Notes: generated from the sequence alone by a model not told the origin. 64,000 nucleotides of DNA from Flavobacteriales bacterium (GCA_965183875.1 CBCYMK010000028.1:37531-101530), one strand, 5' to 3'; shown: positions 7,984 through 64,000, counted from the stretch's first letter. Numbers and translations are program-made.

Positions 7984-7986
7984 AAT

Positions 7987-10313: not shown

Positions 10314-10356
10314 GCGGCAAATATAATGTAAAAGAATGCCTTAGTATAGGAGCAAA

Positions 10357-28200: not shown

Positions 28201-31200
28201 GCGCCTACTATTGCTGTTACAGCTGCCGAAGTTTCTGACGGCGATACCTCTAGCGATGCTAGTTTATCCCTTACTTTTACCATTAGTGAGACCACTACAA
28301 ATTTTGTAGTCGGTGATATAACCGTTACAGGTGGTACCCTTTCGAGTTTTACGGGTAGCGGAACTATATATACCGCTACTTTTACTCCAAGTACAGCCGG
28401 AGCTACAACTATAGATGTTTCGAGTGCTACTTTTACCGATGCTATTGGGAATGCTAATACTGCAGCTAGCCAATTTAATTGGCTTTATGAAATCCCAGTT
28501 CCTTCTATCACAAGTTTTTCTCCAACTACAGGTGCTGTAGGCTCGAGTGTAACCATAAGTGGAACTAATTTCAATGCAACAGCGGCTAATAATATCGTTT
28601 ATTTTGGTGCTGTAAAAGCTACTGTAACTGCAGCCACATCGAGCTCCTTAACCCTTACGGTGCCCAATAGTAGTAGCCATTCTCCCATTACTGTAACTAC
28701 AGGTGGTTTAGTTGCAGCTGCCATGAGTCCATTTTTAGTAACGAATACACTTATAAGTACAGTATCGGTAAATAATAGTTCTTTTGCAGATATTAGTACT
28801 TATAGCTCTGTAGCAGGAAATTCAACCTGGCACCAGGTTGATAAATTAGTTGCCATTGCCGATTTTGATGGAGACGGAAAGCCCGATGTAGTGAAAACGG
28901 GAACTGGAAGTACAGTAATGGTACATTTAAACACCTGTACAGAAGGTGAAATTGATTCCGATACTTTTGATAGCGGTACTGCCTTTGCTACAAATGGATC
29001 TGGGCAGTCTATTGCTACAGCAGATTTTGATGGCGACGGGAAAATGGACCTCGTCTCTTTAGATATTAGCACAGCCTCCTTTTTAAGAAATACCTCTACT
29101 GTTGGTTCTATAAGCTTTGCAACAAAAGTAGATTTATCCATATCGAATAAGTATAGAGTTCGTTGTGCCGATATAGATGGCGATGGAAAAATAGATATTG
29201 TTGTAGCCCCTAATTATGCCTACACCTACTCCTGCGATGTTTATTTAAATACCAGTTCTGTAGGTAGTATTAGTTTTTCTTCTTCTGCTACTAATTTTGT
29301 GTTTCCTATTTCTCATGGGCGCCGCATTGAGCTCGGGGATATAAACATGGATGGAAAGTCAGACATTGTGGCTTTTAAGGGAAGTGGAGTAGATATACTA
29401 TTGAATACCACTACAACCACAGGCTCCCCTACATTTTCTTCTGTTATTTCACTAAGTGGGAATGGTATGCTTGGTGCTATAGCCGATTTTGATAGCGATG
29501 GAGACAATGATTTTATTTCTGACAATGGGTACCTACATCAAAATAATATTTCAGGTGCGGTTACTTCAGATGATTTTTCAAATACAACGATTACCAATAT
29601 AGCTTCTTATGCGAAAGTTACGGCAGGTGATTTTAATGCCGATGGAAAGGTAGATATTCTTACAGGTTATAATAATAGTGGTGCTAAGACACAATTCTTA
29701 CTAAATGAAATTGTAGGGACTACCATTACAGGGACTTCATTTACAAATTATGAAAAATCCAATCAAGGAAATGAGGGTGATGTACTAGTTTGTGATATTG
29801 ACGGTGATGGAAAACCAGAAATTATTTCTTCTATGTTAGGTAGTAGTTCTTTTGGAGTTTTTAGAAACCAAATGTATCAGCCACCAACCATTTCTAGCAC
29901 TACTTTGTCTGCAGACAATACAAGTATAGACGTAACATTTTCTGATGCAGTGTATACCACTACGGGCTCTTCGGGGCTCGCTTCTAGCTTCCGATTTTAC
30001 GCTGTCCATTGCTGGTGGTGTAGCTACAATTAATGCTACACCTAGTAGTATTAGTAGTTCCGGAAATGTGTATACTTTAGGTCTTAACCTTACAGGCACT
30101 CCCAATGGAGTAGAAGTTTTAACGGTTGCTCCCGCAAGTACTACTGCAATTTACAATGCAGTTGATGTAGCTGCCGAAACGAGTCAGTCTAATAATACCA
30201 TTACTTTCCCTTATTCTACCTGGGATGGTTCAACAGACAACGATTGGAGTACTGCTGCTAATTGGTCAAGTTCTTCTATTCCTACATCATCTATTATCCT
30301 CTCTATACCAACTGGCTTAAGTAATTACCCAACTATAGCTACAGGTACATCTGCAGTGTCAAAAACCATAGCAATGGCAAGTGGAACCTCTTTAATAGCT
30401 TCAGGGACTGCCACCTTATCGGGTGATATTACCTATACTCGTGGTGGTTTAGGAACCGATTGGCATTTAGTTTCTACACCTGTAGTAGGAGAAGATTTAG
30501 CCGATGTTATTTCTAATTGTACTTTAGCTACGGGTACTGGATCTAATGTAGGCTTGGCGATTTATAATAATAGTACACCCGCTTGGGAGTATTGTGTAAA
30601 TTCTTCTACAGGAGCTATGTCTTCTGGCTCTGCATACTCTGTAAAGCTAAGTTCTGGGGATCTTTTGTTTACTGGAACTATGCCAGAGGCAGATGTGTCG
30701 GCAGTAACTTCTGCGGGTTCCACAAGTTGGAATCTTATTGGTAATCCTTACCCTTCTTATATTGCTATTAATAGCAGTGCCAATTCCACCAATTTTATTG
30801 GAGAAAATACTTCGAATTTAGAAAGTAGCTATGTGTCTATTTATGTGTGGGATGCGAGCACTTCTCAGTATGCTGTAATCAACCAAGCCTCAGACGCTTG
30901 TTATTTATCTCCTGGGCAAGGCTTTTTTGTGAATGTTAACAGTGGGGTGAGCTCACTTGCGATTACAGAATCTATGCAGAGTCATCAATCTTCAGAAACA
31001 TTTTATAGATCGGGAAGTACTAGTCCAACAATAAAATTACTAGCTACTAAAGGTGATTTGACAAAAACTACCACTATAAAATATTTCGAGACTGCCAGTA
31101 CAGGCTTAGATATAGGTTACGATGCTGGCTTGTTTACAGGAGGTTTAGATCCTTTCAGATTGTCCACTTTTTTAGTGTCCGATAGCGAAGGAATAGAGTT

Positions 31201-37772: not shown

Positions 37773-40700
37773 ATGAAAAAAGTATTAACTCTTTTATGTT
37801 GTGTAGTTTTTGGTGTTTATTCAATCCAAGCACAAGAAGTAACTAGTTGTTCGGCCGGTGAAGTTGGAGTAGTGGTTGCACTTTCTTTTACACAAGACTT
37901 TCCTGCAGGACAAGTAACCTGGGATATTCAAGATGCTGAAGGGAATGTTTTTGCCACCAATCCCTTCGTTTATGCAGCGAATTTCGTGTATACTTCAACA
38001 GAAGTTTGTTTACAAGAGGGACAAACCTATACCTTTAATACCTACGATTCTGGTAATGATGGTTGGGGTTCTGGTTCATGGTACACCTTAGGTATTTGTG
38101 GAGGTTATAATACCTTAATAGATAATAATGGTTTTCCTCCTAATGGATCTGGTACTACCGAATCTTTTACCCTTCCTATTGTAGAAGATAACTGTTTTTG
38201 TTTTAGAGCCAATTACGAAATTGTAAGTGCGTCGAGTTCGGTTGCTACAGACGGTGGTGCTATTGTTACTACCTATGGTGGGAACGCTCCATTTACCTAT
38301 TCTTGGTCTAACGGAACTACAAATCAAAATTTAACTGGCGTAGCTCCAGGTAATTATATTCTTACAATTACAGATTCTGAAGGGTGTGAAGTGGTTGAAA
38401 TTGTAGAAGTTCAAGGTGCTAGTGTGTTCATGGGGCCTTATGATATAGATATTTGTACTGGGTACTTTTACGATTCAGGCGGGTCTAACGATGACTTTGA
38501 GTCGGGAGAGGATTATGTGATGACCATCTGCAGTGATGATCCTGCATTGAGTACAGGATTAACATTTTTTGATTTTGATTTAGGTGGTTCAAACTGGAAC
38601 TCTTGTACCTTCACTATTTACGACGGTCCTAATCCACTTGCACCAGTATTGTATTCTTTTGACAGCCCTAACGATCCACCACCAGGAATAATTACAGCTT
38701 CTAGTGAGAATGTATCGGGTTGTTTAACCGTACATTTTACCTCTCCTTTCGGATTAGAACACGATGGTTGGTTTGCAGAGATTAACTGTCAATTCCCATG
38801 TCAAGACTATGAAGTAAATATTTTATCAAGCGATGAAATTGATGCTGAAAATGTGATTGATGTATGTTATGAGTTAGAGCTTGAGGTAGAAACCAATTAT
38901 TTTGAAAACAATACATTCTATGAGCAGTCCGATGTGACTACAAGTTTCGATTGGACTTTTATCGATGGAGATATTGTACAGTCTGGTCAACAAGTATCTC
39001 AGGTTTATGATGCCGATACAGAATCGGAACTTACTCTTGTGGTTACCGATATTAACGGATGTTTCCAGAATTTTAACTTTACTGTAATTAACGATCATCC
39101 AGAGGTATTAACCTCTATTATACCCCCTACTGAAACTGAAGTATGCCCGGGCACAGAAATCGAAGCTTATAGTGGTCTTTATGCTGGAACAGATAGTTTT
39201 ATATCTACCTTTTTTGTCCCTATTGTATGGCCTGTTCTAGAAGAGCAAGTTGAAGTAGGTGTCGATTTTGCCGAACCTATTTATTTACCAGATGGACTAG
39301 AATCCTATACTTCGATATTAGAAATTACCGCTTATGAAGACGGTTCTGTCCTCGATGGGAACGATTTTACTGAGGTTTGTATTGAGATTGAACACTCTTA
39401 TATAGGTGATTTAGATGTCTCTCTTACTTCTCCAAACGGGACCTTAGTGCAGCTGTTCGATCAGTCTGGTGGCGGTACCTGGTTAGGAGATGCAATCGAT
39501 AATAATAGTGAGGAAATTGCGGGTGAATGTTGGGAGTACTGTTGGTCGGTTACACCCGATTTTGGGACTTTCTCCAATGAAAATGGGAATACCATGACGG
39601 CTCCAATAAATGGTGGTAACTCCATGATTCCTGGGGCATATACTCCCTCAGGAAATTTTTCTGACTTTGCTGGTTCTGATGCAAACGGAAACTGGGTACT
39701 TACTGTAACAGATAATTTATTGATTGATAATGGTTTTATTTGTGGATGGAATATTGCTATGTCTATCCAAGATGAAGAAAATGGTGGAGATCCAATTGTT
39801 GTAGATTCTCTAGTTCCTACAATTTTGAGCTATAACTGGTTTTGCGATGAGGAGCCTTCTTCTGTAGTTATGTACGATTCTACTATGGTTCTTGTGCAAC
39901 CTACTACATCTGGTGAACACAATTACGTAATGACTATTTTAGATAGTTATGGTTGTGAGTATACCGAAGAATTTATGGTTGATGTATATGGTACACCTAT
40001 TTTATCTGACGATGCAGTTATTGCTTGTGAAGATAATTTCTTATTGGAGGCAACCGATGTTCCTCCAGGTGGTGGTATATGGTCTGTGGTAGATTCTCCT
40101 GCGGGTTCTACCGTGACTTTTGATCCTGACAATAGTTCCTTAACACCTACTATAGTGGTAAGTGAAACGGGTGATTATGAGTTTGAATTTACTGAGTTTA
40201 CCTGTGGAGCTTCTAACGATGTAGCCCTAGATTTTGCGGTTGTTTATCCTATAATAGAAACGCCAGAGGATCTAATTTGCTCCCTAGAAAATACGCTCGT
40301 GGTAGATAATCCATCTAATAATACAGGTCTTTGGACTATTGCTACTGGAGATTCTATTCAGATATTAACCGATTCTACCCTAAGTACAATTAATGTGTTG
40401 GCACCAGATTTTGGTTCCTATACCATGACTTATACCATAGATTTCTGTGAAGGTTCAGATTCTGTTGAGGTTAATTTTATTACCGTAGATCCAGTTATTT
40501 CTCCTCCAGGAGTACAGATTTGTGCCTTTGAAGTAGATTTTGAATTAGACAACCCTTCACCTACCGGTGGAATGTGGGGGGTTGTAAGTCAACCAAATCA
40601 TACCTCTGTTGAGTATAGTAACCTAGCAGCTGATGGTGTTTCTATTGAAGTAAGTCAGTTTGGAGCTTATGAAGTTGCTTTCGTAATTGCAGGATGTAAT

Positions 40701-41264
40701 ACCACAGATACTATGCAAGTGGAGTTTAGACAGGCTGTACCTGTGGTGCACACAGACGAGCTTTTAAGATGTGAGCTAGATGCAGAAATGTATGTAGAGT
40801 CTTACGGTTTAGAAATAGGTTGGATGCAAATTGCTGGGCCTAGCTTTGCTAATTTCTCAAATCCTTTAGGACAAGAAACCAGTATGTCTGTTTCAGAATA
40901 TGGTGATTATACGCTTGCTTATACGGCCTGTGATACAACAGTAGCATTTAATGTTTTGTTTATGTGCGACCTTGTTGTGCCGAATGTAATTACTGCAAAT
41001 GCAGATGATCTTAACGATGTGTTATTTGTTGAAGGACTTACTCCCGAGTATTATAGCTATGCCAATATGAGTGTTTTTAACCGTTGGGGAGACGAGGTGT
41101 ATAGATCTGGTCACTATGGTTTAGATGGAGATTGGTGGGATGGCCAGTCTAGTCACCAAAATGATGACTTGGCAGAAGGGATTTATTTTTATGTGTTAGA
41201 AGTAGGAAATAAGGTTACCGAAGAAGTAGATGTTTATAAAGGTTCGGTTCACCTATTTAAATAA
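37773..41264 (+). CDS. Large surface protein with proprotein-convertase P-domain and gliding-motility-type (T9SS type B) C-terminal domain
   Basis: 1163-aa ORF with a signal peptide. SprB-like repeat PFTYSWSNGTTNQNLTGVAPGNYILTITDSEGC. P-domain pattern HSYIGDLDVSLTSPNGTLVQLF...NGNWVLTVTDNLLIDNGFICGWNI. C-terminal VPNVITANADDLNDVLFVEGL...FNRWGDEVY...GIYFYVLE. Confidence 0.8.
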   Translation: MKKVLTLLCCVVFGVYSIQAQEVTSCSAGEVGVVVALSFTQDFPAGQVTWDIQDAEGNVFATNPFVYAANFVYTSTEVCLQEGQTYTFNTYDSGNDGWGSGSWYTLGICGGYNTLIDNNGFPPNGSGTTESFTLPIVEDNCFCFRANYEIVSASSSVATDGGAIVTTYGGNAPFTYSWSNGTTNQNLTGVAPGNYILTITDSEGCEVVEIVEVQGASVFMGPYDIDICTGYFYDSGGSNDDFESGEDYVMTICSDDPALSTGLTFFDFDLGGSNWNSCTFTIYDGPNPLAPVLYSFDSPNDPPPGIITASSENVSGCLTVHFTSPFGLEHDGWFAEINCQFPCQDYEVNILSSDEIDAENVIDVCYELELEVETNYFENNTFYEQSDVTTSFDWTFIDGDIVQSGQQVSQVYDADTESELTLVVTDINGCFQNFNFTVINDHPEVLTSIIPPTETEVCPGTEIEAYSGLYAGTDSFISTFFVPIVWPVLEEQVEVGVDFAEPIYLPDGLESYTSILEITAYEDGSVLDGNDFTEVCIEIEHSYIGDLDVSLTSPNGTLVQLFDQSGGGTWLGDAIDNNSEEIAGECWEYCWSVTPDFGTFSNENGNTMTAPINGGNSMIPGAYTPSGNFSDFAGSDANGNWVLTVTDNLLIDNGFICGWNIAMSIQDEENGGDPIVVDSLVPTILSYNWFCDEEPSSVVMYDSTMVLVQPTTSGEHNYVMTILDSYGCEYTEEFMVDVYGTPILSDDAVIACEDNFLLEATDVPPGGGIWSVVDSPAGSTVTFDPDNSSLTPTIVVSETGDYEFEFTEFTCGASNDVALDFAVVYPIIETPEDLICSLENTLVVDNPSNNTGLWTIATGDSIQILTDSTLSTINVLAPDFGSYTMTYTIDFCEGSDSVEVNFITVDPVISPPGVQICAFEVDFELDNPSPTGGMWGVVSQPNHTSVEYSNLAADGVSIEVSQFGAYEVAFVIAGCNTTDTMQVEFRQAVPVVHTDELLRCELDAEMYVESYGLEIGWMQIAGPSFANFSNPLGQETSMSVSEYGDYTLAYTACDTTVAFNVLFMCDLVVPNVITANADDLNDVLFVEGLTPEYYSYANMSVFNRWGDEVYRSGHYGLDGDWWDGQSSHQNDDLAEGIYFYVLEVGNKVTEEVDVYKGSVHLFK

Positions 41265-51254: not shown

Positions 51255-53198
51255 TTAATGGCTATGTTTTAGCTTAGTTCTAATCTGTTCGATAATTCTT
51301 TTAACACCTTCTTTATCGTATGCACAATCCGATTGTAATTGTAGCTGAGGGCCGTGTTCAATAAACTCATCTGGCACCCCTAGTCTGTAAACAGACGAAT
51401 GGTATTGATGGTCTGCCATGAATTCAATCACTGCTGATCCAACACCGCCTGTAATACATCCATCTTCAATAGTAATAATATGGCTGTAGTTTTGGAAAAC
51501 TTCGTGTAGAAGGTTTTGGTCTAATGGTTTTGCAAATCTCAAATCGTAATGTGCAATTTGGATGCCTTCTTTGTCGTATTCGTTACATGCATCCATCGCG
51601 TAATTTCCAACGTGTCCGAAACTTAAAATAGCGATGTCTTTTCCAGAACGCAATTTACGGCCAGACCCAATTTCAATAGATTCAAATTCGGTTTTCCATT
51701 CGGGCATAACTCCTTTTCCTCGAGGATAGCGAATTGTAAAAGGTCCGTGGTCTTTTTCTTGTGAGGTAAACATTAGATTTCTTAGCTCTCCTTCGTTCAT
51801 AGGAGCAGAAATTATCATGTTCGGAATACACCTAAAAAAAGCAATATCAAAGGTTCCGTGATGTGTGGGGCCATCGTCTCCAACTAAGCCGGCACGATCT
51901 AAACAAAACACCACATTAAGTTTCTGGATTGCTACATCGTGTACCACCTGATCGAAGGCTCTTTGCATAAAGCTAGAGTATATATTGCAAAAGGGAGTAA
52001 AGCCTTGGGTGGCCATTCCAGCAGAAAAAGTTACTGCATGTTGTTCTGCTATACCTACATCAAATGCTCTGTCAGGCATTTCTTCCATCATGTATTTTAA
52101 AGAACATCCAGTGGGCATTGCTGGGGTTATCCCAACAATTTTTTCGTTCTTTTTTGCCAACTCTATGATAGTATGTCCAAATACATCTTGGTATTTTGGA
52201 GCCTCAGTTTTAGGCTTTTTTATACTGATAATTTCACCTGTATCTTTGTTGAAAAGCCCAGGTGCATGCCATTTAGTAGTGTCTCCTTCTTCGGCAGGCT
52301 TATATCCTTTACCTTTAGTGGTAATACAGTGAAGAATTTTAGGTCCAGGGATGTCTTTTAAATCCGCTAAAATTTTCACCATATGCTCTACATCGTGCCC
52401 ATCTACAGGGCCAAAATATCTAAAGTTTAAGGATTCAAAATAGTTGCTCTGTTCAAGCATAGAGGACTTTACAGCATTTTCTACCTTTTTTACTAGCGAT
52501 TGTGCGTTAGGTCCAAACTTGCTTATTTTACCGAGTAAATCCCAAACTTCATCTTTAATTTTATTGTAAGTATGTGAGGTGGTAATGTCTGTGAGATATT
52601 CTTTTAATGCTCCTACATTAGGATCTATAGACATGCAGTTATCATTAAGGATAACCAACATATTTGAGTTTTCTATACCTGCATGATTTAGCGCTTCAAA
52701 AGCTTGCCCTCCTGTAAGTGCTCCATCGCCTATTACCGCTATATGCTGTTTTTGTGCATCTCCTTTTAGTTGAGAAGCAACTGCCATTCCTAGAGCTGCT
52801 CCAATAGAAGTTGAGGAGTGTCCTACTCCAAAAGCATCATATTCACTCTCATCCCGCTTAGGAAACCCACTAATACCTTTGTACTTTCTGTTCGTGTGAA
52901 AAACATCTTTTCTACCTGTAAGAATTTTATGTCCGTATGCTTGATGTCCTACGTCCCAAACTAACTGGTCTTCGGGAGTGTTGAATACATAATGTAGTGC
53001 AACGGTAAGTTCAACCACACCTAAACTAGCCCCAAAGTGACCTCCGTTGGTAGATACTTGGTCTACAATAAATTGACGCAACTCGGTAGAAACTTGAGGT
53101 AAGTCTATTGCTTCCAGTTTTCTTAAGTCGGTCGGATTATTTATTGATCCTAGTAAAGATTTCACTTTGTTGTGTGGTATTGGAGGTGAGTATTTCAA
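51255..53198 (-). CDS. dxs: 1-deoxy-D-xylulose-5-phosphate synthase
   Basis: 647-aa ORF. GHSSTSIGAALGMA, IGDGALTGGQAFEALN and DGPTHHG. Confidence 0.96.
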   Translation of the reverse strand: MKYSPPIPHNKVKSLLGSINNPTDLRKLEAIDLPQVSTELRQFIVDQVSTNGGHFGASLGVVELTVALHYVFNTPEDQLVWDVGHQAYGHKILTGRKDVFHTNRKYKGISGFPKRDESEYDAFGVGHSSTSIGAALGMAVASQLKGDAQKQHIAVIGDGALTGGQAFEALNHAGIENSNMLVILNDNCMSIDPNVGALKEYLTDITTSHTYNKIKDEVWDLLGKISKFGPNAQSLVKKVENAVKSSMLEQSNYFESLNFRYFGPVDGHDVEHMVKILADLKDIPGPKILHCITTKGKGYKPAEEGDTTKWHAPGLFNKDTGEIISIKKPKTEAPKYQDVFGHTIIELAKKNEKIVGITPAMPTGCSLKYMMEEMPDRAFDVGIAEQHAVTFSAGMATQGFTPFCNIYSSFMQRAFDQVVHDVAIQKLNVVFCLDRAGLVGDDGPTHHGTFDIAFFRCIPNMIISAPMNEGELRNLMFTSQEKDHGPFTIRYPRGKGVMPEWKTEFESIEIGSGRKLRSGKDIAILSFGHVGNYAMDACNEYDKEGIQIAHYDLRFAKPLDQNLLHEVFQNYSHIITIEDGCITGGVGSAVIEFMADHQYHSSVYRLGVPDEFIEHGPQLQLQSDCAYDKEGVKRIIEQIRTKLKHSH

Positions 53199-53288
53199 TC
53201 AATTGCAAATGTACTAAACTAATAGTAGAAATTATATTTTGGAATTGAGTAAAAAAGACGGATATTTAAAATTCTAATTTTATACTCA

Positions 53289-53834
53289 ATGACTAATAAG
53301 GAACTCATAGATTCTATATATCACAACGATGAAAAGGTGATCGAATCTCTGTACCATGACTATAGGTCACACTTTATTTCTTGGGCCCTTGTAGAATATA
53401 AGATATCTAAAGACGACGCTAAAGATCTATTTCAAGAAGTGATGGTTGTGTTAGTTGTGAAAATTCAAAGAAAAAAAATTATTGAAATTACTACTACTGT
53501 AAAAACATTCCTATTTGGTATTGGGAAGCAATTAATAAGAAATAATATTAAACTCAAATACAATAGAGAGTCAAGACAACAGCAATTCTATTATCAATCT
53601 GATAAATCCGACCAAAACATAGAGGTTGATGATAATTATGGTCTTGTAATTTCTGAATTGTCAAATATGAAAATGCCCTGTAAGTCTATCCTTTATCAGT
53701 ATTATTTAGATAATTTGAGTTTAAATGAAATAGCACTATCTTTGGGCTATAAATCGGCTAAAAGTGTTAAAGTACAGAAGTATAGGTGTTTGAAGACACT
53801 CAAAGATGAAATATTTAAAGTTAAAGTAAAATAA
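53289..53834 (+). CDS. ECF-type sigma-70 family RNA polymerase sigma factor
   Basis: 181-aa ORF. Region-2-like DAKDLFQEVMVVL and a region-4 HTH, LSLNEIALSLGYKSAKSVKVQKYRCLKTLK. Confidence 0.75.
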   Translation: MTNKELIDSIYHNDEKVIESLYHDYRSHFISWALVEYKISKDDAKDLFQEVMVVLVVKIQRKKIIEITTTVKTFLFGIGKQLIRNNIKLKYNRESRQQQFYYQSDKSDQNIEVDDNYGLVISELSNMKMPCKSILYQYYLDNLSLNEIALSLGYKSAKSVKVQKYRCLKTLKDEIFKVKVK

Positions 53835-53838
53835 TAGT

Positions 53839-54603
53839 ATGGTATTTAGTGCAAAAAAAATTGAGCTTATAGAGCGTTATTATAATGAAGATTTATCTCC
53901 AGAAGAATTAGATTTTTTTATGGAACAGATGGTGAAAGATTCAAATTTTGCTGAAGAAGTAAAACAATTTAGTTTTGTTTTTGAAGGCATAGATGAGTTG
54001 CGATCTCTAGAAATGAAAAATAAATTTAATATATACGAAAGGCAGTATCTGGCTGATTCTAAGAGGTCTCGATTTGTTAAGTTCACGCGTAAGTCAGCTT
54101 CTATGGCGGCCGCTTTTTCCATCTTACTAATGTCAACGGCTTATTTGTTTGTCTTTACTAATCCTTCTGTGAATACAGCAGAAGTGTATGCACAATATTT
54201 TGAGGCTTATCCTAATGTTATAGCACCTGTAACTAGATCGCTTAATCAGGATCTTGGAGCCGTGTTTTTAGCGATGAACAAATACGATTCTAATAATTAT
54301 ACAGATGCAATAACTGCTTTTGATGACTTGTTGGATCATAATCCATTGCAAAATGAAATTCTATTTTACAAAGCTGTCTCGTTAATGTCTACCGGCAAGC
54401 ATAAGGAAGCTAAGGTTCAGCTAGAGTTAATGGATGAATACGGTCAATTTAAAAATCAAAGAAAATGGTACTTAGCTCTTGCATCTCTTCAGTTAGAAGA
54501 GTTTGCAGAAACGCAAGAACTACTTACTAGTATAGTTCAAGATCAAAGCTCTTATTCTGTGTATGCTCAGGAATTGTTAAGCGAGTTTTTTTCCAATAAA
54601 TAA
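53839..54603 (+). CDS. Anti-sigma-like single-pass membrane protein with TPR ectodomain
   Basis: 254-aa ORF starting 4 nt after the sigma gene's stop codon. N-terminal IERYYNEDLSPEELDFFMEQ pattern, one TM (AAFSILLMSTAYLFVF) and a C-terminal TPR-like region. Confidence 0.5.
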   Translation: MVFSAKKIELIERYYNEDLSPEELDFFMEQMVKDSNFAEEVKQFSFVFEGIDELRSLEMKNKFNIYERQYLADSKRSRFVKFTRKSASMAAAFSILLMSTAYLFVFTNPSVNTAEVYAQYFEAYPNVIAPVTRSLNQDLGAVFLAMNKYDSNNYTDAITAFDDLLDHNPLQNEILFYKAVSLMSTGKHKEAKVQLELMDEYGQFKNQRKWYLALASLQLEEFAETQELLTSIVQDQSSYSVYAQELLSEFFSNK

Positions 54604-57576
54604 TCCGATAGCACATAAGAGTATTCCCAGTGCTAAGAATTTAAGTTTTTGCGATTTAGTTTTCTCTAGGTCTATTGTTTTATGATCACCTATTAATGCA
54701 AGTCCAGCCCAATAAATGGGATTGGATGTATGTTCATCGGCATTTTTTAAATAGTTAGTTTTCGCATTTTTCATTGCTAGAGATTTATTCTCACTGCTAA
54801 GCCTGTTAAAAAAATCTTTTATGATTAGAGATGTCGAAAAATCTGGTAGTGGCCATAGTCCTACGATTACTGTTTTCGCTCCAGCATAATTAAAACTCCT
54901 GGCTAGACTAGCAAGTCCTTCTCCCTTTTTGAGTTCGCCAACACCTGTATTACAAGCGCTCAAGACAATGAGCTCAGTGTTTAATTTTGTATTTTGAATT
55001 TCATAAGCGTATAATTTGTTCTCTGTCTCTTTGGTTTTGGAACTCAATAGTAAGCTTGAATAAGCAGAATTTTTAGTGTTTATTTTTGCGTGGCTTGCAA
55101 AGTGAACGATTTTATAATTAGCAATTTCTGCTAAAATTGTTTCTTTTAAATTCTCCTCTTCACTAAGGAGTTTTCCATTAAACTTTTCAGCTATCGAGGC
55201 TACTTCGCTATGTGCGCCTTTTAGCTTACTAATGTTTTCTCCCGAAAATGTTGGAGCTATTCCCAGGTATAACTCTTGGTCATTATAGGGGGTGTGGTGA
55301 CTTTTTTGAAGCGAGTTTTTGTAGGAAATGGAAAAGTCATTAATTAAGTAGTTCAGTTTGTTATAACTCGTTTGTTGGTGCTTTTGTGTAATGAATGTGT
55401 CGAAACTTAAAAATGAAATCGATTTACTTGGAATTATAGTAATCTGATTTATACCGTCTTTAATAAGATGGTTTTTAATTAAATCGGTATAAAATATAAA
55501 CGCCAATTCTGCATAGCTTATAAATTCTGAGTTTTGGGTAGCATAATTAAAGGTGTTTATTTTCTCCTCGAAAAAGTCTATCTCAACCTCATTAAATTTC
55601 ATAGTCTTATTACTAAGACTAATTGAGAAAATCTCATTTTTATACTGGTAGTATTCAATCAGTAATTCATCTGGATCTAAGCTGTTTTGAATCTGTGAAA
55701 TATTAAAATCAGATTTTTGGTACTTCTGTGCGAAATATATAGGGTTGCTATCTTCTAGTTTTCCCAATAAATCTTCGAGTTCTCTTTTTTGTTCGAAAAT
55801 AGTACTGCTGAGCTCTTTTGAATATTCAGAACTAGGTTCATTTTCTGTAAAAAGTAAGTTTTGGTTTTGAGAGATTTCTCTTTTTAAATAATCTTCTTTA
55901 AGAAGTAGTGAGTCGGAAATATGATTGCTATTTTTTGCTTTAAGATCAGAGTATTCTTGCTTCAGAAGAAACGATTTCTCTGCTTCAAAAAACGCTAATG
56001 CTTGTTCTATATATTTGGGGTCTTTAGTGAGGTCGTAAAGTGTCTTAGCTGCTTGAATCCCTAAGTGTAAATTTTCATTTATTGAGATAAATAAATCCAG
56101 TTTTGCGTCTTCGTGTTCGTAATAATCGATGGTAATACCACTAAGTTTACTCGTTATTATAGTGGATTCGTAGAGCGTATTTAAAAATTGTATATTTTGT
56201 GTTTTGTTGTATTCTTCCCAGAGCATTTTTTCTTTTAGTATGTAAATGTCTAGAAGTAATGTTCTGGAGATTATTTCTTCTGTAAAATCAATATTTGTGG
56301 ATTTTGATAAGATAAGTGCTCCTTCTGCATTGGTAAGTTCTGTATTTGCTTTTGGATAGTTGTTCTGTAAGAAATAGCATTTAGCTAATAGGTAGTAGCT
56401 CTCTGCAAGGTCTAAATCTTTTATGCCAAATAAATTTTTAGCTATCGCAATTGACTTAGTAAGATGTTCTTCTGCCTTTTGATATTCTTTTAGTTTTATA
56501 TAGGTGTCTGCGAAATGATTCAGGATAACGGTAGTTAATTCATTGCTAGTTCCAGAGACTTCTGTGTTTAACGTATTTGCTTTTTTTAATACAACCAACG
56601 CACTGTCGTATTGGGTGCATTCCATTAGTGTAGCACCAAGGTTTAGGTATTTCCAAGGAAGCTCATTTGTATAGTCTTTCCCCTCTAACAAAGAAATTGT
56701 TTTATTATGTATCTCTTTTGCTTCAGTAAACCTCCCCAAGTTGGTGTAGTTATTTGCTAAGTTACTATATGCCGTTGTACGTGCGAATATATCGTCTCCC
56801 TCTTCGAATATTTCTAGCGCTTCCTTATAGTATTCTTGAGAAGAGTTATAGTCTTTTTGAGATTCTAATATAACGCCAATTGCATTGTATATATGTGCCT
56901 TGTATTTGGTGTCACTAACTAAGCTGTCTTTGTAAAAGTTGAGTGCTGTTTCGTAGTTTTCTCTAGCTTTAAAAAGTCGATTCGACGACTGGTATGCACT
57001 CCCAAGAGAAAAGTATGAGCTAACTAAGCTGTTGTAGTTTAATGGCTTTATCTGTAATGCTATTTCAAGTGCTTGTTCTTGATAGTCGATAGACAATTTG
57101 GAGTTTCCAATATTTGAGTTAAATACTCCTAGTGCAATAAGGTTTTGTACTATTTTTTTGTGATTGGGTTTTAGGTGTAGTCTTCTTATTTCTAAAGCCT
57201 TTTCTGCATAAATAAAGGTAGAGTCTATTTCTCCTTTCCGGAATTTAGCAACGCCTAAATTATAGAGAACGTCTCCGTAAGGTTCTAGGTTTTCAAATCT
57301 GTCGTATCTCGTAGCAATCGACTTATGACCGTATTCGATAATCTTGTCAATTTTGTTCATCTTTTTAGAAAGATGGCAGAGCTGTGCTAAATAAGTAAAG
57401 CGAAGTTCAGCTTTGTCTGTACTTGAAATATATTGTTGTAGGAATTCTTCTGCACTGCTAAATGAAGAGTGTTTCGCTAGTGAATCGCTTTTTAAAAGTA
57501 TTGCATCTGATGAGCTTTGTGCATAACTAATAAGGCTTGTAGAAATAATTAAAACTATATAAATTACATTTTTCAT
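54577..57576 (-). CDS. Exported TPR-repeat CHAT-domain (caspase-like) protein
   Basis: 999-aa ORF with a signal peptide (IISTSLISYAQ). About 10 TPR-like repeats. CHAT domain with a His/Cys dyad context (IVHFASHAKIN and LIVLSACNTGVGE). C-terminal hydrophobic anchor (FLALGILLCAIGLFIG). Its 3' end overlaps the convergent gene by 27 nt. Confidence 0.85.
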   Translation of the reverse strand: MKNVIYIVLIISTSLISYAQSSSDAILLKSDSLAKHSSFSSAEEFLQQYISSTDKAELRFTYLAQLCHLSKKMNKIDKIIEYGHKSIATRYDRFENLEPYGDVLYNLGVAKFRKGEIDSTFIYAEKALEIRRLHLKPNHKKIVQNLIALGVFNSNIGNSKLSIDYQEQALEIALQIKPLNYNSLVSSYFSLGSAYQSSNRLFKARENYETALNFYKDSLVSDTKYKAHIYNAIGVILESQKDYNSSQEYYKEALEIFEEGDDIFARTTAYSNLANNYTNLGRFTEAKEIHNKTISLLEGKDYTNELPWKYLNLGATLMECTQYDSALVVLKKANTLNTEVSGTSNELTTVILNHFADTYIKLKEYQKAEEHLTKSIAIAKNLFGIKDLDLAESYYLLAKCYFLQNNYPKANTELTNAEGALILSKSTNIDFTEEIISRTLLLDIYILKEKMLWEEYNKTQNIQFLNTLYESTIITSKLSGITIDYYEHEDAKLDLFISINENLHLGIQAAKTLYDLTKDPKYIEQALAFFEAEKSFLLKQEYSDLKAKNSNHISDSLLLKEDYLKREISQNQNLLFTENEPSSEYSKELSSTIFEQKRELEDLLGKLEDSNPIYFAQKYQKSDFNISQIQNSLDPDELLIEYYQYKNEIFSISLSNKTMKFNEVEIDFFEEKINTFNYATQNSEFISYAELAFIFYTDLIKNHLIKDGINQITIIPSKSISFLSFDTFITQKHQQTSYNKLNYLINDFSISYKNSLQKSHHTPYNDQELYLGIAPTFSGENISKLKGAHSEVASIAEKFNGKLLSEEENLKETILAEIANYKIVHFASHAKINTKNSAYSSLLLSSKTKETENKLYAYEIQNTKLNTELIVLSACNTGVGELKKGEGLASLARSFNYAGAKTVIVGLWPLPDFSTSLIIKDFFNRLSSENKSLAMKNAKTNYLKNADEHTSNPIYWAGLALIGDHKTIDLEKTKSQKLKFLALGILLCAIGLFIGKKLA

Positions 57577-57721
57577 AAACTGATATTTATGCTAAAATAA
57601 GCCATCAATCTCAATTTGTAAGTGCTTTTGATGAAAAAAAATCGCTCATCAAAAATAGTACCAAATGACTAGTTTCTTGTAAAATAAGCATGGATTTCTA
57701 TTGCTATTCCACGGAAAAATT

Positions 57722-57729
57722 TAAATTTG
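57722..57729 (+). promoter_or_regulatory. Bacteroidetes-type -7 promoter box for asnS
   Basis: taaatttg, 30 nt upstream of ATG 57759. Confidence 0.45.
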
Positions 57730-57758
57730 CTAAAATAAGCTACGTTATCAAAAAGATC

Positions 57759-59198
57759 ATGAAAAGGACTACTGTGAAAAAAGCCTTGTCTTTAAAGGCA
57801 GGTGAGGAATTAGTAAACCTAAAAGGTTGGGTTAGAACAAAAAGAGGGAGCAAGCACGTTTCGTTTATTGCTTTAAACGACGGTTCTACCATAAATAATA
57901 TCCAAATTGTAGCAGAAGATATAATTTCAGAAGACATTTTGAAAGTGATCCATACAGGAGCTAGTCTTTCTGTTGTTGGGAAATTGGTGCAATCTCAAGG
58001 TTCGGGACAGGCCATAGAGCTACTGGCTGAGTCTATAGAAGTCTTGGGAGTTGCCGATCCGGATGAATATCCCTTACAGCCAAAAAAACATTCTTTAGAA
58101 TTTTTAAGAGAAAATGCCCATTTAAGGTTCAGAACTAATACGTTTAGTGCAATATTCCGCATTCGACATGCAATGACTTATGCTATTCATAGCTTTTTTA
58201 ATGAGAAAGGCTTTTCAAACGTTCATACGCCTATTATAACTGGCTCTGACTGTGAGGGGGCTGGCGAGATGTTTGCTGTTAGTACTTTGGATAAAAAAAA
58301 CACACCTCTAACTGAAGACGGCGAAATAGATTATGCGCAAGACTTCTTTGGGAAAGAAACCAACTTAACTGTTTCAGGACAACTAGAAGCTGAGATGGCT
58401 GCAATGGCACTCGGTAAGGTATATACTTTTGGACCTACTTTTAGAGCAGAAAATTCCAATACCTCTCGCCACCTAGCTGAGTTTTGGATGATAGAGCCGG
58501 AAGTGGCTTTTGCTGATTTAGACGAAGACATGGACTTGGCGGAGGAAATGCTAAGACATTTATGTACTTATGCTTTGGAGAATTGTGCTGATGACTTAGC
58601 TTTCTTAGATAAGCGTTTGTTTGAGGAAGAGAAGAATAAGAAAAAAGAAGAAAGACAAGAATTAGGGCTAATAGAGAAGTTGAAATTTGTTGCAGACAAC
58701 GATTTTGAACGCATAACTTATACCGAAGCGTATGATATTCTAAGAAACTCTAAACCCAATAAGAAAAAGAAATTCGAATACCTTATAAATGAGTGGGGAG
58801 CAGATTTTCAATCGGAGCATGAACGTTACCTTGTTGAGAAGAAATTCAAAAAACCCGTTATTATTACCGATTACCCTAAGGATATAAAAGCCTTTTATAT
58901 GCGTATGAACGAGGATGGAAAAACTGTTCGTGCTATGGATGTTTTGTTCCCTGGGATTGGCGAAATTATAGGTGGTTCACAAAGAGAAGAACGTATAGAT
59001 ATACTTAAAGCCCGTATGGCTGAAATGGATGTCTTAGAGCATGAACTCTCTTGGTATTTAGATTCTCGTAAATTTGGCTCTGCGCCACATAGTGGATTTG
59101 GTTTAGGATTTGAACGTCTGATTCTATTTGTTACAGGAATGGGGAATATCAGAGATGTGATTCCTTTCCCTAGAACACCAAATAACGCCGACTTTTAA
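57759..59198 (+). CDS. asnS: Asparaginyl-tRNA synthetase
   Basis: The internal start [10 protein letters not shown] was preferred over the track's 57690. A TAAATTTG box lies at 57722-57729. Class II motifs [21 protein letters not shown] and GFGLGFERL. Confidence 0.95.
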
Positions 59199-61026: not shown

Positions 61027-61052
61027 AGCATCTCTCTGAGATGCTTTTTTTT
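61027..61052 (+). terminator. Rho-independent terminator after the ArsR-family gene
   Basis: Stem agcatctc/gagatgct, loop tct, then a T-run. Confidence 0.75.
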
Positions 61053-61100
61053 GGCATATTTTTAGCATACGACAGAACACACAAACATACACATTACCCC

Positions 61101-64000
61101 ATGAAGAAAATTATGTACTTTTTTGTTTACCTCAGTGCTTTAAGCATAGCAGCTCAAACAACCAACGTAAATACCTTACTTAATACCACAAGTAAATTGC
61201 AATTGAGTTTTACCTCTGCTGAGATTCAATTATCTACCATAGAGCATAGAGCCGAATTCTATACGCAGATTTCTGTAGATGGTTTAACAAAGTCTTATGA
61301 TATAGGAAACCCAGATTTACCCGTTTTTAGTAAACTTATTGAGGTTCCTACTTCTGGAGATTTACAAGTGAATATTATAGATTCTTCAAAAAGAACAATT
61401 GACCTAGCTGCAATTGGTTTTCCTCAAGAGATCTATCCCTCACAGGTGTCAGTTTTTAAAAATCAAGACCCTAGTAAAATTCCTTTTACCTATAATGAAA
61501 ACAGCTATTCTTCTAACGAATTTTATTCTCAAGACTTAGTTAAAATAGAGCGTTTAGGAATTATGAGAGGCAAGTCTATTGCGCGTATACAAATAGCTCC
61601 CTTCGCATATAATGCAGTGATTAATCAACTTGAAGTAACTGAAGATTTAGTTTTTTCTGTAGATTTTGAAAATGTGATTAAGCTAGAATCTAAAGCGCTT
61701 AAATCACAGGATTTTGATATTAATTTTTCAAAACTAGTAAACTCTTCTATTGGAGAAAAGCACGAATTCTCTACAAATACCACAGGTATGATCATTCTTT
61801 CAGATCCAATGTTTGAAGAAGATTTACAAGACTTTATAAGCTGGAAAAGAAAAAAAGGCTTTGAAGTAATCGAAGCTTATAAAGGTTCCGAAGAGGTAGG
61901 TAGTACTGTGGAGAGTATGAAAGCATATGTGCAGTCGTTTTATGATAACGCTACAGCTGATAATCCAGCTCCCACTTATTTACTTATTGTTGGTGATCAT
62001 GAACAGGTACCTAGTTTTGATGCAGGTGACCATGTTTCTGATATGTACTATTGTGAGTTCGATGGAAATGGTGATTATTTCCCCGAGATGATTTTTGGTC
62101 GTTTTTCTGCTTCTACAAGTGCCGAATTATTAATTCAAATAGATAAAACTTTACAATACGAACAATATACTATGGCTAATCCGTCTTATTTGTCGGAAGT
62201 GCTTATGGTAGCCGGTGTAGATGGGAATTTTGCTCCTACCCATGGTAATGGACAAATTAATTACGGAACCGATTATTATTTTAATGCTGAACACGATTTA
62301 AGTCCTTACGTATATTTGTATCCAGAAACGAATTCGAATGCTGTCGAAACAGCAATTATTGAGCATGTAAGTCAAGGTGTTGGTTTTGCAAATTATACTG
62401 CCCACTGTAGCCCTGCAGGTTGGTCAGACCCAAGCTTCGAACTGTCTGATGTTGCCGGATTAAATAATGAAGATGAGTATGGCTTAATGGTGGGTAACTG
62501 CTGTCAGTCAAATACCTTTAATGGGGTGACCTGTTTCGGTGAATCTTTATTGAGAAAATCTAAAGGTGGAGCCGTAGGATATATAGGAGGTTCTAATAAT
62601 ACACTTTGGGACGAAGACTATTATTGGGGAGTAGGAAATGGTCCAATTTCGGCTAACCCTACCTACGAAGAAACTGGTTTAGCTGTTTACGATTGTAGTT
62701 TTCACGAAAATAATGAGCAAACTTCCGATTGGTCAATTACACAAGGACAGCTATTGCAGTCCGGTAACTGGGCTGTTACAGAATCGGGAAGTGGTAATAC
62801 ACAGTATTATTGGGAGATATACCATTTAATGGGAGATCCATCTGTATTAACTTATTTTGGTGTGCCATCGGTGCTTACTGTATCGCATCCAGAAGCACTA
62901 GTTGTAGGAATGTCTACTATTGCTGTGAGTACTGAGCAGTATACTTACGTTGCGATTAGTCAAAATGGAGTTTTGTTAGACGCATTATATACCGATGAAT
63001 CTGGGGATGTAACTTTGTCTTTCGATCCACTTAACACAATGGATAATCTGGATGTTGTAGCAACCAAGCAAAATAAGCAGCCTTATACTGGGCAGGTGAA
63101 TATGATGAGTTCTAATGCACCTTATATAGCTTGTTCTTCAATTGCTATAAACGATGGCTTGCTTGGAAATAATGAGGTTGAGTATAATGAAACTTTTTCT
63201 CTTGGGTTGAATTTACAAAATTATGGTGCTGTAGCATCTTCTCCTTTGTCGGTTGATATTAGCTCTTCTAATCCAAATATTACGCTTTCTTATGACTCTT
63301 TAAATACCGATTCTATTCCAGCAGAATCTTTCTTACAGCTAGATGATCTAGTTACTGTGTCTTTAAATGGTAATTTTATGGATCAGGAAATTGTTGCCTT
63401 ACAATTTACTATTGTTGATGAAGATGGAACAGAATGGGTGTCGACAAATAGTTTTGTGGTTAATGCTCCGCAATTAGAGTTTTCTTCTTCGGAATTATCT
63501 AGTGGGAATTCTACAATTTCTTTAGGTGAATCTGTCGACGTAATTTTCACTTTAGAAAATGTAGGGCATGCTACCTGTGAAAGTGGTGGTGTAGCTATTG
63601 ATTCAGAATTTCCTTCTCTAACAATTGACGTGGATGAAGTTCCTTTTTCTGCAATCGAATCTAATAGCCAATACACGGTTACCATACCAGTAACACTAGA
63701 GGAAGATGCTCCTTTAGGAGTACAGTATTCAATCTCTTTAAGTGCGGTTTCATTTGATAATTTTAATGCTGACTATACAGTTGAATTTAGCAGCCCTAAT
63801 TGTTCTCTGGAAAGTGTAGGGGTGCAGATTAATTTAACTTCAGATTATTATGCACATGAAACGGCGTGGACCTTAACGGATGCTGCTGGAGTCGTTGTAG
63901 GTGAGGTTGAATTAGGTTCCTTAAATTCAGAAGAGGTATATGAAGATGTATTTTGTATGGAGCCAAACTCGTATTGCACATTTGCTATAACCGACTCTTA
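61101..64000 (+). CDS. Peptidase C25 (gingipain-like) cysteine protease, 3'-truncated by the window edge
   Basis: Absent from the ORF track because there is no stop inside the window. Hand translation from ATG 61101 through about 62660 is open, and no track ORF interrupts this frame further downstream. Signal peptide MKKIMYFFVYLSALSIAAQ. Propeptide-like GNPDLPVFSKLIEVP. Catalytic-domain motifs YLLIVGDHEQVPSF, ANYTAHCSPAGW (His) and MVGNCCQSNTF (Cys). Confidence 0.85.
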   Translation, partial: MKKIMYFFVYLSALSIAAQTTNVNTLLNTTSKLQLSFTSAEIQLSTIEHRAEFYTQISVDGLTKSYDIGNPDLPVFSKLIEVPTSGDLQVNIIDSSKRTIDLAAIGFPQEIYPSQVSVFKNQDPSKIPFTYNENSYSSNEFYSQDLVKIERLGIMRGKSIARIQIAPFAYNAVINQLEVTEDLVFSVDFENVIKLESKALKSQDFDINFSKLVNSSIGEKHEFSTNTTGMIILSDPMFEEDLQDFISWKRKKGFEVIEAYKGSEEVGSTVESMKAYVQSFYDNATADNPAPTYLLIVGDHEQVPSFDAGDHVSDMYYCEFDGNGDYFPEMIFGRFSASTSAELLIQIDKTLQYEQYTMANPSYLSEVLMVAGVDGNFAPTHGNGQINYGTDYYFNAEHDLSPYVYLYPETNSNAVETAIIEHVSQGVGFANYTAHCSPAGWSDPSFELSDVAGLNNEDEYGLMVGNCCQSNTFNGVTCFGESLLRKSKGGAVGYIGGSNNTLWDEDYYWGVGNGPISANPTYEETGLAVYDCSFHENNEQTSDWSITQGQLLQSGNWAVTESGSGNTQYYWEIYHLMGDPSVLTYFGVPSVLTVSHPEALVVGMSTIAVSTEQYTYVAISQNGVLLDALYTDESGDVTLSFDPLNTMDNLDVVATKQNKQPYTGQVNMMSSNAPYIACSSIAINDGLLGNNEVEYNETFSLGLNLQNYGAVASSPLSVDISSSNPNITLSYDSLNTDSIPAESFLQLDDLVTVSLNGNFMDQEIVALQFTIVDEDGTEWVSTNSFVVNAPQLEFSSSELSSGNSTISLGESVDVIFTLENVGHATCESGGVAIDSEFPSLTIDVDEVPFSAIESNSQYTVTIPVTLEEDAPLGVQYSISLSAVSFDNFNADYTVEFSSPNCSLESVGVQINLTSDYYAHETAWTLTDAAGVVVGEVELGSLNSEEVYEDVFCMEPNSYCTFAITDS

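Follow-up and report, generated by a model that had tools for sequence, protein, structure and literature searches.

A conserved gene trio in Bacteroidota joins an ECF sigma factor and an anti-sigma-like membrane protein to a predicted periplasmic TPR-CHAT protease

How a protease that combines tetratricopeptide repeats (TPRs) with a CHAT domain controls an ECF (extracytoplasmic function) sigma factor across a membrane is an open question, and the sole characterised periplasmic case is DdvS/DdvA of Myxococcus xanthus, an ECF sigma factor and a transmembrane anti-sigma factor with a periplasmic TPR-CHAT region (PMC11506125; PDB 8ROT, 8RW5). The periplasmic TPR-CHAT domain of DdvA blocks RseP, which degrades DdvA once the domain is removed; self-cleavage of the DdvA linker in trans has been proposed and not observed, the catalytic dyad is in a resting state and the signal has not been found (PMC11506125). 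The DdvA-like class is characterised in part by dimer formation and by a CHAT active site without the three-helix motif of separase and craspase. DdvA-like fused proteins have been reported only from Myxococcota and one Comamonas, with a subset of the Myxococcota pairs near defence systems, and DdvA/DdvS controls an island of cyclic-oligonucleotide-based antiphage signalling (CBASS) and clustered regularly interspaced short palindromic repeat (CRISPR) genes (PMC11506125). Here we analysed a 64,000-nt stretch of DNA from a Flavobacteriales bacterium (GCA_965183875.1 CBCYMK010000028.1:37531-101530), called the window below, with positions counted from its start. It carries a gene for a 181-aa ECF-type sigma factor, a gene for a 254-aa single-pass, anti-sigma-like TPR protein (the partner protein) and, convergent to these, a gene for a 999-aa TPR-CHAT protein with a signal-peptide-like N-terminus. 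We find that the trio is a conserved module and not a chance neighbourhood. It is highly probable that it works as a three-part signalling module of sigma factor, anti-sigma factor and CHAT protein, and moderately likely that this is an envelope pathway in which a CHAT protease, seated at the periplasmic surface of the inner membrane, governs the release of the sigma factor from its membrane-bound inhibitor.

The likeness to DdvS/DdvA lies in the combination of an ECF sigma factor, a single-pass protein with a cytoplasmic anti-sigma domain (a predicted one in the window), a periplasmic TPR-CHAT part with a His-Cys dyad and a flexible juxtamembrane linker that is the proposed site-1 target. DdvA is one 991-aa polypeptide, whereas the corresponding parts are encoded here by separate genes (convergent, 254 and 999 aa) in all loci examined, so that any cleavage would involve two different proteins. 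The CHAT protein accordingly has its own signal peptide and C-terminal anchor and the partner its own small TPR domain, where DdvA has a fusion. DdvA also has a CHCC zinc site, in contrast to the partner family, which is without zinc ligands, and DdvA-type proteins have been reported from Myxococcota and one Comamonas, whereas the partner family belongs to Bacteroidota and has no defence island nearby.

A second relative is craspase of type III-E CRISPR systems, in which the TPR-CHAT protein Csx29 cleaves Csx30 and relieves the inhibition of CASP-sigma (PMC10028731). The arrangement proposed here likewise sets a TPR-CHAT protein in trans against a separate inhibitor of an ECF-type sigma factor, and Csx29 is the best structural match of the window's CHAT protein. 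However, craspase is cytoplasmic and RNA-activated via Cas7-11 (gRAMP), and Csx30 is not a membrane protein, whereas both partners here are predicted to be membrane-tethered and periplasmic; no CRISPR or cas genes were found in the module flanks. In its proposed way of working the module resembles both DdvA and craspase, and it falls in neither class. ECF54 of Actinobacteria has CHAT, subtilase and carboxypeptidase genes in its gene context, and proteolytic regulation has been proposed for it (PMC8999054, PMC7826278). ECF54 thus also has a CHAT-domain protein conserved near the sigma gene, but it belongs to another phylum and is without an anti-sigma factor, whereas the module described here has a dedicated transmembrane anti-sigma-like protein as its best-conserved component. 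With the RpoE/RseA system the locus would share an N-in single-pass anti-sigma factor, a periplasmic site-1 cut tens of residues past the membrane and an anchored sensing protease. The RpoE/RseA site-1 protease is a PDZ serine protease, whereas here it would be a clan CD cysteine protease with TPR arrays, and neither the sigma factor nor the anti-sigma-like protein is a homologue of its RpoE/RseA counterpart. HetF of heterocyst-forming cyanobacteria, the protease from which the CHAT domain takes its name, has a role in cell regulation and is comparable as a bacterial CHAT protease with such a role, but its architecture and phylum differ from those of the 999-aa protein, and we know of no sigma/anti-sigma pairing for it.

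An earlier reading of the window by eye (the sequence-only reading) had described the sigma gene as followed, 4 nt after its stop codon, by the gene for a single-pass TPR protein whose 3' end overlaps that of the convergent 999-aa gene by 27 nt. Open reading frame (ORF) coordinates were identical for both the gap and the overlap (Table 1). The homologue search was seeded on the 254-aa protein and run on protein, genome and metagenome data, and all ORFs in 48 loci were scored with phmmer. CHAT-protein homologues of ~999 aa with 44-64% identity came from marine Flavobacteriales genome bins, and the full trio was found in the slot accC-dxs-module-asnS-rpoN in the window and in loci L001-3, L011, L012, L018, L019, L021-27, L029, L030 and L036. 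Since a shared dxs/asnS slot by itself shows only inherited gene order, the informative cases are those in other genomic contexts. There, the CHAT gene was adjacent to the partner-family gene in nine of ten unrelated contexts (L009, L010, L015/44, L016/17, L045, L047, L049, L051 and L052), and a sigma gene lay immediately upstream of the partner-family gene in all ten contexts in which this could be assessed. The order seen in the window, with sigma upstream and CHAT convergent downstream, recurred outside the slot in L009, L010, L016/L017 (Spirosomataceae), L045 and L047. In L010 an additional gene (5988-6791, 267 aa, no Pfam match) stands between the anti-sigma-like gene and the convergent CHAT gene. 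The CHAT gene is present in L015/L044 (Cytophagales), where the contig ends on the sigma side; conversely, L048 has the sigma gene and loses the CHAT side to the contig end. Four further family members (L049 to L052) were picked without regard to gene context. All three genes were present, with CHAT convergent, in L051 and L052, and in L049 the CHAT gene is divergent and upstream of sigma and partner instead of convergent and downstream. A rearranged order with the neighbourhood retained suggests selection on the neighbourhood itself. The overlap between the 3' ends of the CHAT and partner genes measures 15-45 nt in orthologues and 21 nt (L009), 9 nt (L045, L051) or 4 nt (L047) in unrelated loci. 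The sequence-only reading had offered to give up its proposal should the CHAT gene and the sigma/anti-sigma pair fail to travel together in other genomes; they do travel together, both across the dxs/asnS slot and outside it.

The distant TPR-CHAT protein P0050 (27% identity) is convergent to a different pair, a sigma factor with a zf-HC2 anti-sigma factor, and the TPR-CHAT homologues P0043 (L006) and P0046 (L007) have no sigma or anti-sigma neighbours, so that membership of such a module is not general among the TPR-CHAT proteins of Bacteroidota. In L007 (Aquimarina sp., 6001-12947) two TPR-CHAT genes of 1179 and 1136 aa, each with a C-terminal membrane helix, stand in tandem away from any sigma or anti-sigma gene, and the same architecture is thus also used outside the module.

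The 181-aa protein scored 46.0 bits against the NCBIfam ECF superfamily model TIGR02937 (cut-off 42.9) over residues 19-174. Its top NCBIfam match, TIGR02985 (Bacteroidetes sigma-70), stayed under its cut-off, every specific NCBIfam sigma model scored far under cut-off, and Pfam Sigma70_r2 and Sigma70_r4 matched sub-threshold only. By its sigma2 and sigma4 regions only, its length within the range of ~160-220 aa and its score above the curated threshold, the protein classifies as a predicted ECF (group IV) sigma factor. The spacing between sigma and partner genes was -11 to +7 nt in most loci (4 nt in the window), suggesting that the two genes are probably co-transcribed and translationally coupled.

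A full hidden Markov model search gave 1,457 cluster representatives of the partner family at E<=1e-30, far more than a word-indexed search had suggested. Among the best 150 of these, nearly all were full-length (232-270 aa), with one 142-aa fragment. The N-terminal 80 residues follow the pattern L-I-E-x-Y-x-x-x-x-L-S-x-x-E-x-x-x-F-x-x-x-L-x-x-D-x-x-F, and an alignment made by eye matches LIERYYNEDLSPEELDFFMEQMVKDSNFAEEV of the 254-aa protein residue for residue with VIERYLMHELSESEENAFEEHLLGCQQCRKKL of the zf-HC2 anti-sigma factor of L008. The zinc ligands H/C/C of the latter correspond to Q30/D34/F37 in the 254-aa protein, which thus departs from H-x3-C-x2-C. In 147 representatives with pairwise identity of <=50%, which also underlie the motif counts below, D34 was kept in 132 and F37 in 119. 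A permissive Pfam scan of 35 family N-termini matched PF13490 (zf-HC2) in 11, all sub-threshold (best E=0.0077), RskA_N once, and no family besides zf-HC2 more than twice. The AlphaFold2 (AF2) model has helices at residues 5-15, 21-33 and 35-74, a membrane helix at 89-107 and a TPR domain at 139-251 with a predicted local distance difference test score (pLDDT) of ~90. Foldseek with the full-length model returned small generic TPR domains only, the best being the periplasmic ones of YbgF (2xev, target TM-score 0.83) and NlpI. The membrane helix and the Pfam TPR_16 match at aa 145-191 bear out the earlier description of a single-pass TPR protein. Six Lys or Arg residues lie in the flank that precedes the membrane helix, SKRSRFVKFTRKS, and none in the flank after it, suggesting that the N-domain is cytoplasmic and the TPR domain periplasmic. 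Its gene lies directly downstream of, and is predicted to be co-transcribed with, the sigma gene, which is the position of a class I transmembrane anti-sigma factor. Collectively, these features suggest that the 254-aa protein is a zinc-free variant of an anti-sigma factor whose N-domain would bind the sigma factor, an assignment that is well supported but not proven.

For the 999-aa protein, the signal-peptide-like N-terminus, the CHAT domain, the HFASH and LSACNTG contexts and the C-terminal hydrophobic helix described in the sequence-only reading were all present. The match to CHAT (PF12770), a family of caspase-like peptidases of clan CD, scored 156.4 bits against a cut-off of 24. The two sequence contexts give the catalytic residues H829 and C875 in full-length numbering (the alignments and the structure model lacked Met1, and these residues appear there as H828 and C874). 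Both were invariant in 48 homologues, and the dyad was intact in all 11 partner-linked CHAT proteins examined, from which we predict that the domain is competent as a peptidase. The AF2 model (pLDDT 85.8, predicted TM-score 0.78) comprises ~10 TPRs, a helical connector and an alpha/beta CHAT domain from ~residue 636, and its ~20 TPR-type helices agree with the earlier estimate of about ten repeats. Foldseek matched the model in the PDB to Csx29 (8eey_B, 1.6e-14), human separase (9hma) and DdvA (8rot_A, 1.7e-13). DdvA ranked third and fourth among these matches and 8rot_A had the highest query TM-score, 0.42; in the sequence search DdvA was the only CHAT structure detected, weakly (E=0.004).

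The hydrophobic N-terminus of the protein reads MKNVIYIVLIISTSLISYA followed by QSS. Such a segment was found in nearly all orthologues and in 10 of 11 partner-linked CHAT proteins, the L045 copy running to the contig end. The C-terminal helix and its basic tail were kept in orthologues P0001-P0040 and in all 11 partner-linked CHAT proteins. A signal sequence combined with a C-terminal stop-transfer helix and basic tail suggests that the TPR-CHAT body is periplasmic and tethered to the inner membrane. By hydropathy and charge rules it would then share a compartment with the linker and TPR domain of the partner. A split between compartments had been the second ground on which the sequence-only reading would have been abandoned, and the predicted topology places the anti-sigma ectodomain and the CHAT domain together in the periplasm.

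The most conserved stretch of the partner family is the linker F-x-P-Y-P-N-V-I-A-P-x-x-R (aa 121-133), which exceeds both the TPRs and the N-domain. Y124 was kept in 145 of 147 representatives and N126 in 141; position 133 was basic in 146 (Arg in 135, Lys in 11), and the basic residue is followed by Gly or Ser in a flexible linker. The motif lies ~14-26 residues past the membrane helix. In the AF2 model this stretch is coil of low confidence, with pLDDT <50 at residues 133-137. High conservation together with predicted disorder is the signature of a motif that is read by a partner protein, and we propose that the motif may be the docking and cleavage site for the CHAT protease. The sole representative without a basic residue at position 133, P0147 (...IEPVES...), comes from the single clade that lost the CHAT gene, and in a locus-level alignment the motif Arg was kept in every CHAT-bearing locus. 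The versions found in CHAT-less loci were IEPVESSGS (L013, L034, L037), IEPVKRLGS (L033) and VPVNR (L031).

These features can be assembled into a mechanism. On the cytoplasmic side, the zinc-free anti-sigma domain of the 254-aa protein would keep the ECF sigma factor at the inner membrane; the periplasmic part of this protein would consist of a short flexible linker with Y-P-N-V-I-A-P-x-x-R followed by a small 3-TPR domain. The exported 999-aa protein, tethered by its C-terminal helix, would sit with its TPR array and CHAT domain beside the anti-sigma ectodomain. The CHAT domain would be switched on by a ligand in the periplasm, probably a peptide or protein that the TPR arrays bind, and would then make the site-1 cut in the anti-sigma linker at or near the conserved Arg (R133). 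An intramembrane protease of the RseP type and cytoplasmic proteases would remove the stub, leaving the sigma factor free to direct transcription of a regulon elsewhere in the genome. What we infer is that the N-domain binds the sigma factor, that a ligand activates the protease, that the motif is cut and that further proteolysis follows; cleavage in trans at this site, as a specific model, is one that we find plausible but hold tentatively. The broader idea of a proteolytic switch coupled to a sigma/anti-sigma pair, raised by the sequence-only reading, gains support in our analysis from the co-conservation, from the predicted shared compartment and from the precedents of DdvA/DdvS (PMC11506125) and Csx29/Csx30/CASP-sigma (PMC10028731).

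Conservation of dyad and motif also bears on a different division of labour, in which the CHAT protein, catalytically silent or directed at itself, serves as sensor and steric shield, the site-1 cut falls to another protease (DegS-, Prc- or CtpB-like), and the motif docks in a TPR groove instead of being cut. TPR domains typically bind extended peptides, which would suit a docking motif, and the small TPR domain of the partner resembles the TPRs of protease adaptors such as NlpI. The behaviour of DdvA, with its block on RseP, resting dyad and lack of observed cleavage, points the same way (PMC11506125). However, the invariant His and Cys, in the 48 homologues and in all partner-linked CHAT proteins, are hard to explain without catalysis, and conservation within the motif peaks at a basic residue that is followed by Gly or Ser in a flexible linker. 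We therefore regard a silent CHAT sensor as unlikely.

A neighbour-joining tree of the partner proteins within the dxs/asnS slot reveals an ordered decay of the module. A single loss of the sigma gene maps to the base of a MED-G21-like clade that comprises L004/5/14/38, L040-42, L032 and the partner-only loci. The CHAT gene was then lost once inside this sigma-less clade (L013, L031, L033, L034, L037), and the motif decays only following CHAT loss. This order, from sigma to CHAT to motif, is compatible with parts that depend on each other in a chain, the CHAT protein acting by way of the partner protein and the sigma factor. The series is built on single events and is suggestive and not statistical; such stepwise loss in streamlined marine lineages nevertheless amounts to a small natural experiment on the dependence among the parts. 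In L041 (4143-6085), a lineage also without an adjacent sigma gene, the CHAT gene has been independently broken into fragments of 220 and 400 aa and appears to be a pseudogene caught mid-decay of the module.

The same series provides the main support for a job independent of the sigma factor, in which the 254-aa and CHAT proteins form a periplasmic pair of protease and adaptor or inhibitor, for example in envelope protein processing, and the sigma factor is a linked regulator. Partner and CHAT persist together after sigma loss across the whole clade, and the partner lasts longest. Three points weigh against such a job, namely the sigma gene immediately upstream, at a spacing typical of coupling, in all ten unrelated contexts that could be assessed, the anti-sigma pattern of an N-domain that stays conserved, and the chance that in the sigma-less lineages the sigma gene has moved elsewhere in the genome. 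A sigma-independent role for the pair thus seems distinctly unlikely.

The region upstream of the CHAT gene speaks to its place in the pathway. It contains the box TATTTTTG, an exact match to TAnnTTTG, the published housekeeping -7 promoter consensus of Bacteroidetes; the promoter reading of TATTTTTG depends on this consensus. The surrounding block, ATTTGGTAYTATTTTTGAT, was conserved in L001, L011 and L012 and also in the sigma-less locus L014, and the CHAT gene itself persists in several lineages without the sigma gene. The CHAT protein appears to be made from its own housekeeping-type promoter. Retention of the box even without the sigma gene suggests constitutive production of the CHAT protein, which one would expect of a sensor and not of an output. 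This bears on the possibility that the CHAT gene is a member of the sigma regulon, an output outside the sensing machinery. Genes beside ECF sigma genes are often targets, and regulators and targets are hard to separate by context (PMC7826278). Nevertheless, the conserved box, the retention of the CHAT gene without sigma and the lack of a motif common to the upstream regions of sigma and CHAT all count against an output, and the matching membrane-tethered periplasmic architecture in all partner-linked CHAT proteins argues for a physical partnership. We consider it improbable that the CHAT gene is only an output.

In the window the divergent intergenic region between CHAT and asnS also carries an imperfect inverted repeat (57614-57666) with 21-nt arms that are 76% complementary and 11 nt apart, the right arm containing the TATTTTTG box. 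Orthologous loci have different palindromes in the same place, rich in runs of T and A (for example GCTTTTTTAAAAAAAGC in L014), and the repeat may serve as an operator or form a hairpin within the 5' untranslated region. The asnS ORF (57690-59198, 502 aa) probably starts too early; orthologues have 479 aa, which would place its start near 57759 (MKRTTVKK...) and make the intergenic region ~182 bp. For 53000-57900, chance alone would give 19.5 sigma-70 promoters and 2.1 terminators; a scan, with Bacteroidetes promoters outside its models, returned 18 and 3, which carries no information. Rfam over 52900-58000 returned no RNA family.

The sequence-only reading had described the block as more AT-rich than its flanks and had offered a conflict system as an alternative. 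A mild drop in guanine-plus-cytosine (GC) content was confirmed, with the module at 0.327, the window at 0.365, dxs at 0.391 and asnS at 0.380. Among the 46 ORFs of the window (mean 0.361, standard deviation 0.029), the sigma gene alone was an outlier, at 0.291. A special or foreign block was not borne out. GC at third codon positions (GC3) was 0.28 for the sigma gene and 0.275 and 0.297 for the other two genes of the trio, mid-range within the window's 0.22-0.36, suggesting that the lower GC reflects amino-acid composition and not foreign codon usage. A foreign origin of the module was rejected on account of GC3 equal to the window average and of a slot that is syntenic across a family-level clade and vertically inherited.

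A conflict system would resemble DdvS/DdvA in function as well, with CHAT sensing an invader in the periplasm and the sigma factor activating defence genes. In its favour, the closest characterised system controls a CBASS and CRISPR island, and a TPR-CHAT protein takes part in type III-E CRISPR immunity. On the other hand, no defence genes stand beside the module, which is flanked by the housekeeping genes dxs, accC, asnS and rpoN; PADLOC returned just two weak and non-specific matches, SAVED to the sigma factor (E=0.0027) and a generic TPR model to the CHAT protein. Vertical inheritance in a fixed housekeeping slot with ordinary GC3 is unlike a mobile defence island, and even in Myxococcota only a subset of DdvA-like pairs lies near defence systems. 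The conflict-system alternative thus fared poorly; an anti-phage role is very improbable, and a defence-system identity was set aside on the weakness of the PADLOC matches.

The preferred reading, a CHAT protease that controls release of the sigma factor, is drawn from the gene anatomy, the domains, the intact dyad, the matching periplasmic topology, the co-conservation and the pattern of the motif, and several observations weigh against it. L050, one of the ten unrelated contexts, has sigma and partner genes but lacks a CHAT gene within 6 kb. In L004/5/14, L032, L038 and L040 partner and CHAT are intact but no sigma gene adjoins them, and the partner gene stands alone with a conserved N-domain in L013, L031, L033, L034 and L037; such persistence indicates that the pair is not strictly dependent on a neighbouring sigma gene. 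The anti-sigma assignment of the 254-aa protein draws on sub-threshold matches, an alignment made by eye and gene position, and PDB sequence-profile searches with the full-length partner and with its N-domain gave no significant anti-sigma match (RskA, E=1.3). A search for a bipartite promoter of ECF type in the regions upstream of 11 diverse sigma genes gave no motif with support from more than 5 sequences, where shuffled controls reached 4-6. The C-terminal helix and basic tail of the CHAT protein could be a removable sorting signal rather than a stable anchor. The loss of the motif Arg is one unreplicated evolutionary event. Furthermore, the P1 residue differs among CHAT proteases of known specificity (Arg in separase, Met or Leu in craspases), and Arg as the P1 residue of the cut considered here is a guess.

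Should the preferred reading of protease-controlled sigma release hold more widely, tethered periplasmic CHAT proteases would replace DegS-type proteases in a Bacteroidota-wide envelope pathway, with a ligand-gated site-1 cut in trans after the basic residue of Y-P-N-V-I-x-P-x-x-[RK]; we put this forward as a possibility that is on balance doubtful. The anti-sigma partner alone accounts for ~1,500 clusters at 50% identity. Full-text literature searches for a CHAT domain with an ECF sigma factor and an anti-sigma factor showed no Bacteroidota case among the papers listed, with an unnoticed group-level annotation in the ECF Hub being possible. On our analysis, what is new here is a predicted split, in-trans and Bacteroidota-wide counterpart of DdvA-type periplasmic TPR-CHAT/anti-sigma signalling with a defined candidate motif. 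If true, it would be the first periplasmic protease-substrate pair of the separase/securin kind tied to transcription, and a natural split DdvA in which enzyme and substrate are experimentally separable. Confirmation would extend regulated intramembrane proteolysis by a caspase-like branch and provide a function for a large family annotated just 'tetratricopeptide repeat protein' and for many 'CHAT domain-containing protein' entries. The split into two genes, the candidate motif and the abundance of the family in a phylum that includes genetically tractable members make the site-1 hypothesis directly testable.

Table 1. Features of the sigma/partner/CHAT module, in window positions.
Feature	Position	Strand	Basis
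Gene for 181-aa ECF-type sigma factor, sigma2 and sigma4 regions divergent	53289..53834	+	ORF and TIGR02937
Gene for single-pass anti-sigma-like protein, 254 aa	53839..54603	+	ORF, membrane helix, TPR_16
Predicted cytoplasmic anti-sigma-domain-like region, aa 1-80, zinc-free variant	53839..54078	+	By-eye alignment, sub-threshold PF13490, modelled helices
Membrane helix of 254-aa protein, aa 87-107, predicted N-in/C-out	54097..54159	+	Kyte-Doolittle maximum 1.85
Juxtamembrane motif F-E-A-Y-P-N-V-I-A-P-V-T-R, aa 121-133, candidate docking/cleavage site	54199..54237	+	Family conservation
Predicted periplasmic 3-TPR domain of 254-aa protein, aa 139-251	54253..54591	+	Pfam TPR_16, TPR_19
27-nt overlap of convergent 3' ends of 254-aa and 999-aa genes	54577..54603	.	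ORF coordinates
Gene for 999-aa TPR-CHAT protein	54577..57576	-	Pfam CHAT, E=1.5e-45
Predicted signal peptide of 999-aa protein, aa 1-20, cut likely after SYA	57517..57576	-	Sequence reading
TPR array of 999-aa protein, ~10 repeats, ~aa 38-420	56317..57465	-	TPR_12, TPR_10, TPR_8, TPR_MalT; ~20 paired helices in AF2 model
CHAT domain, ~aa 634-965; His829 (55090-55092), Cys875 (54952-54954)	54682..55677	-	PF12770, aa 702-964
C-terminal membrane helix of 999-aa protein, ~aa 978-995, then tail KKLA	54592..54645	-	Kyte-Doolittle maximum 2.05
TATTTTTG box, exact TAnnTTTG match, 73 nt 5' of CHAT start codon	57650..57657	-	Position computed

Elsewhere in the window, a gingipain-like Peptidase_C25 gene (61041-64000) with a propeptide and a C-terminal immunoglobulin-like domain runs off the end. 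Its orthologues in other loci likewise follow rpoN and an HTH_5 regulator gene, and they encode a Por_Secre_tail type IX secretion signal. The product belongs, like the CHAT protein, to the clan CD cysteine proteases; the two genes are 3.5 kb apart, probably by coincidence because rpoN and the HTH gene lie between. On the minus strand at 3509-5876, an ORF of 185 aa with the second lowest GC in the window (0.303) overlaps a downstream gene for a 605-aa TPR protein by 8 nt. The layout looks like a second pair of sigma-like and TPR genes, and the 185-aa protein has no Pfam or NCBIfam match. Two secreted proteins typical of flavobacterial surfaces and unrelated to the module complete the list, one of 1479 aa with Laminin_G_3, FG-GAP and Big domains (25594-30033) and one of 1163 aa with a CHU_C type IX secretion signal (37773-41264).

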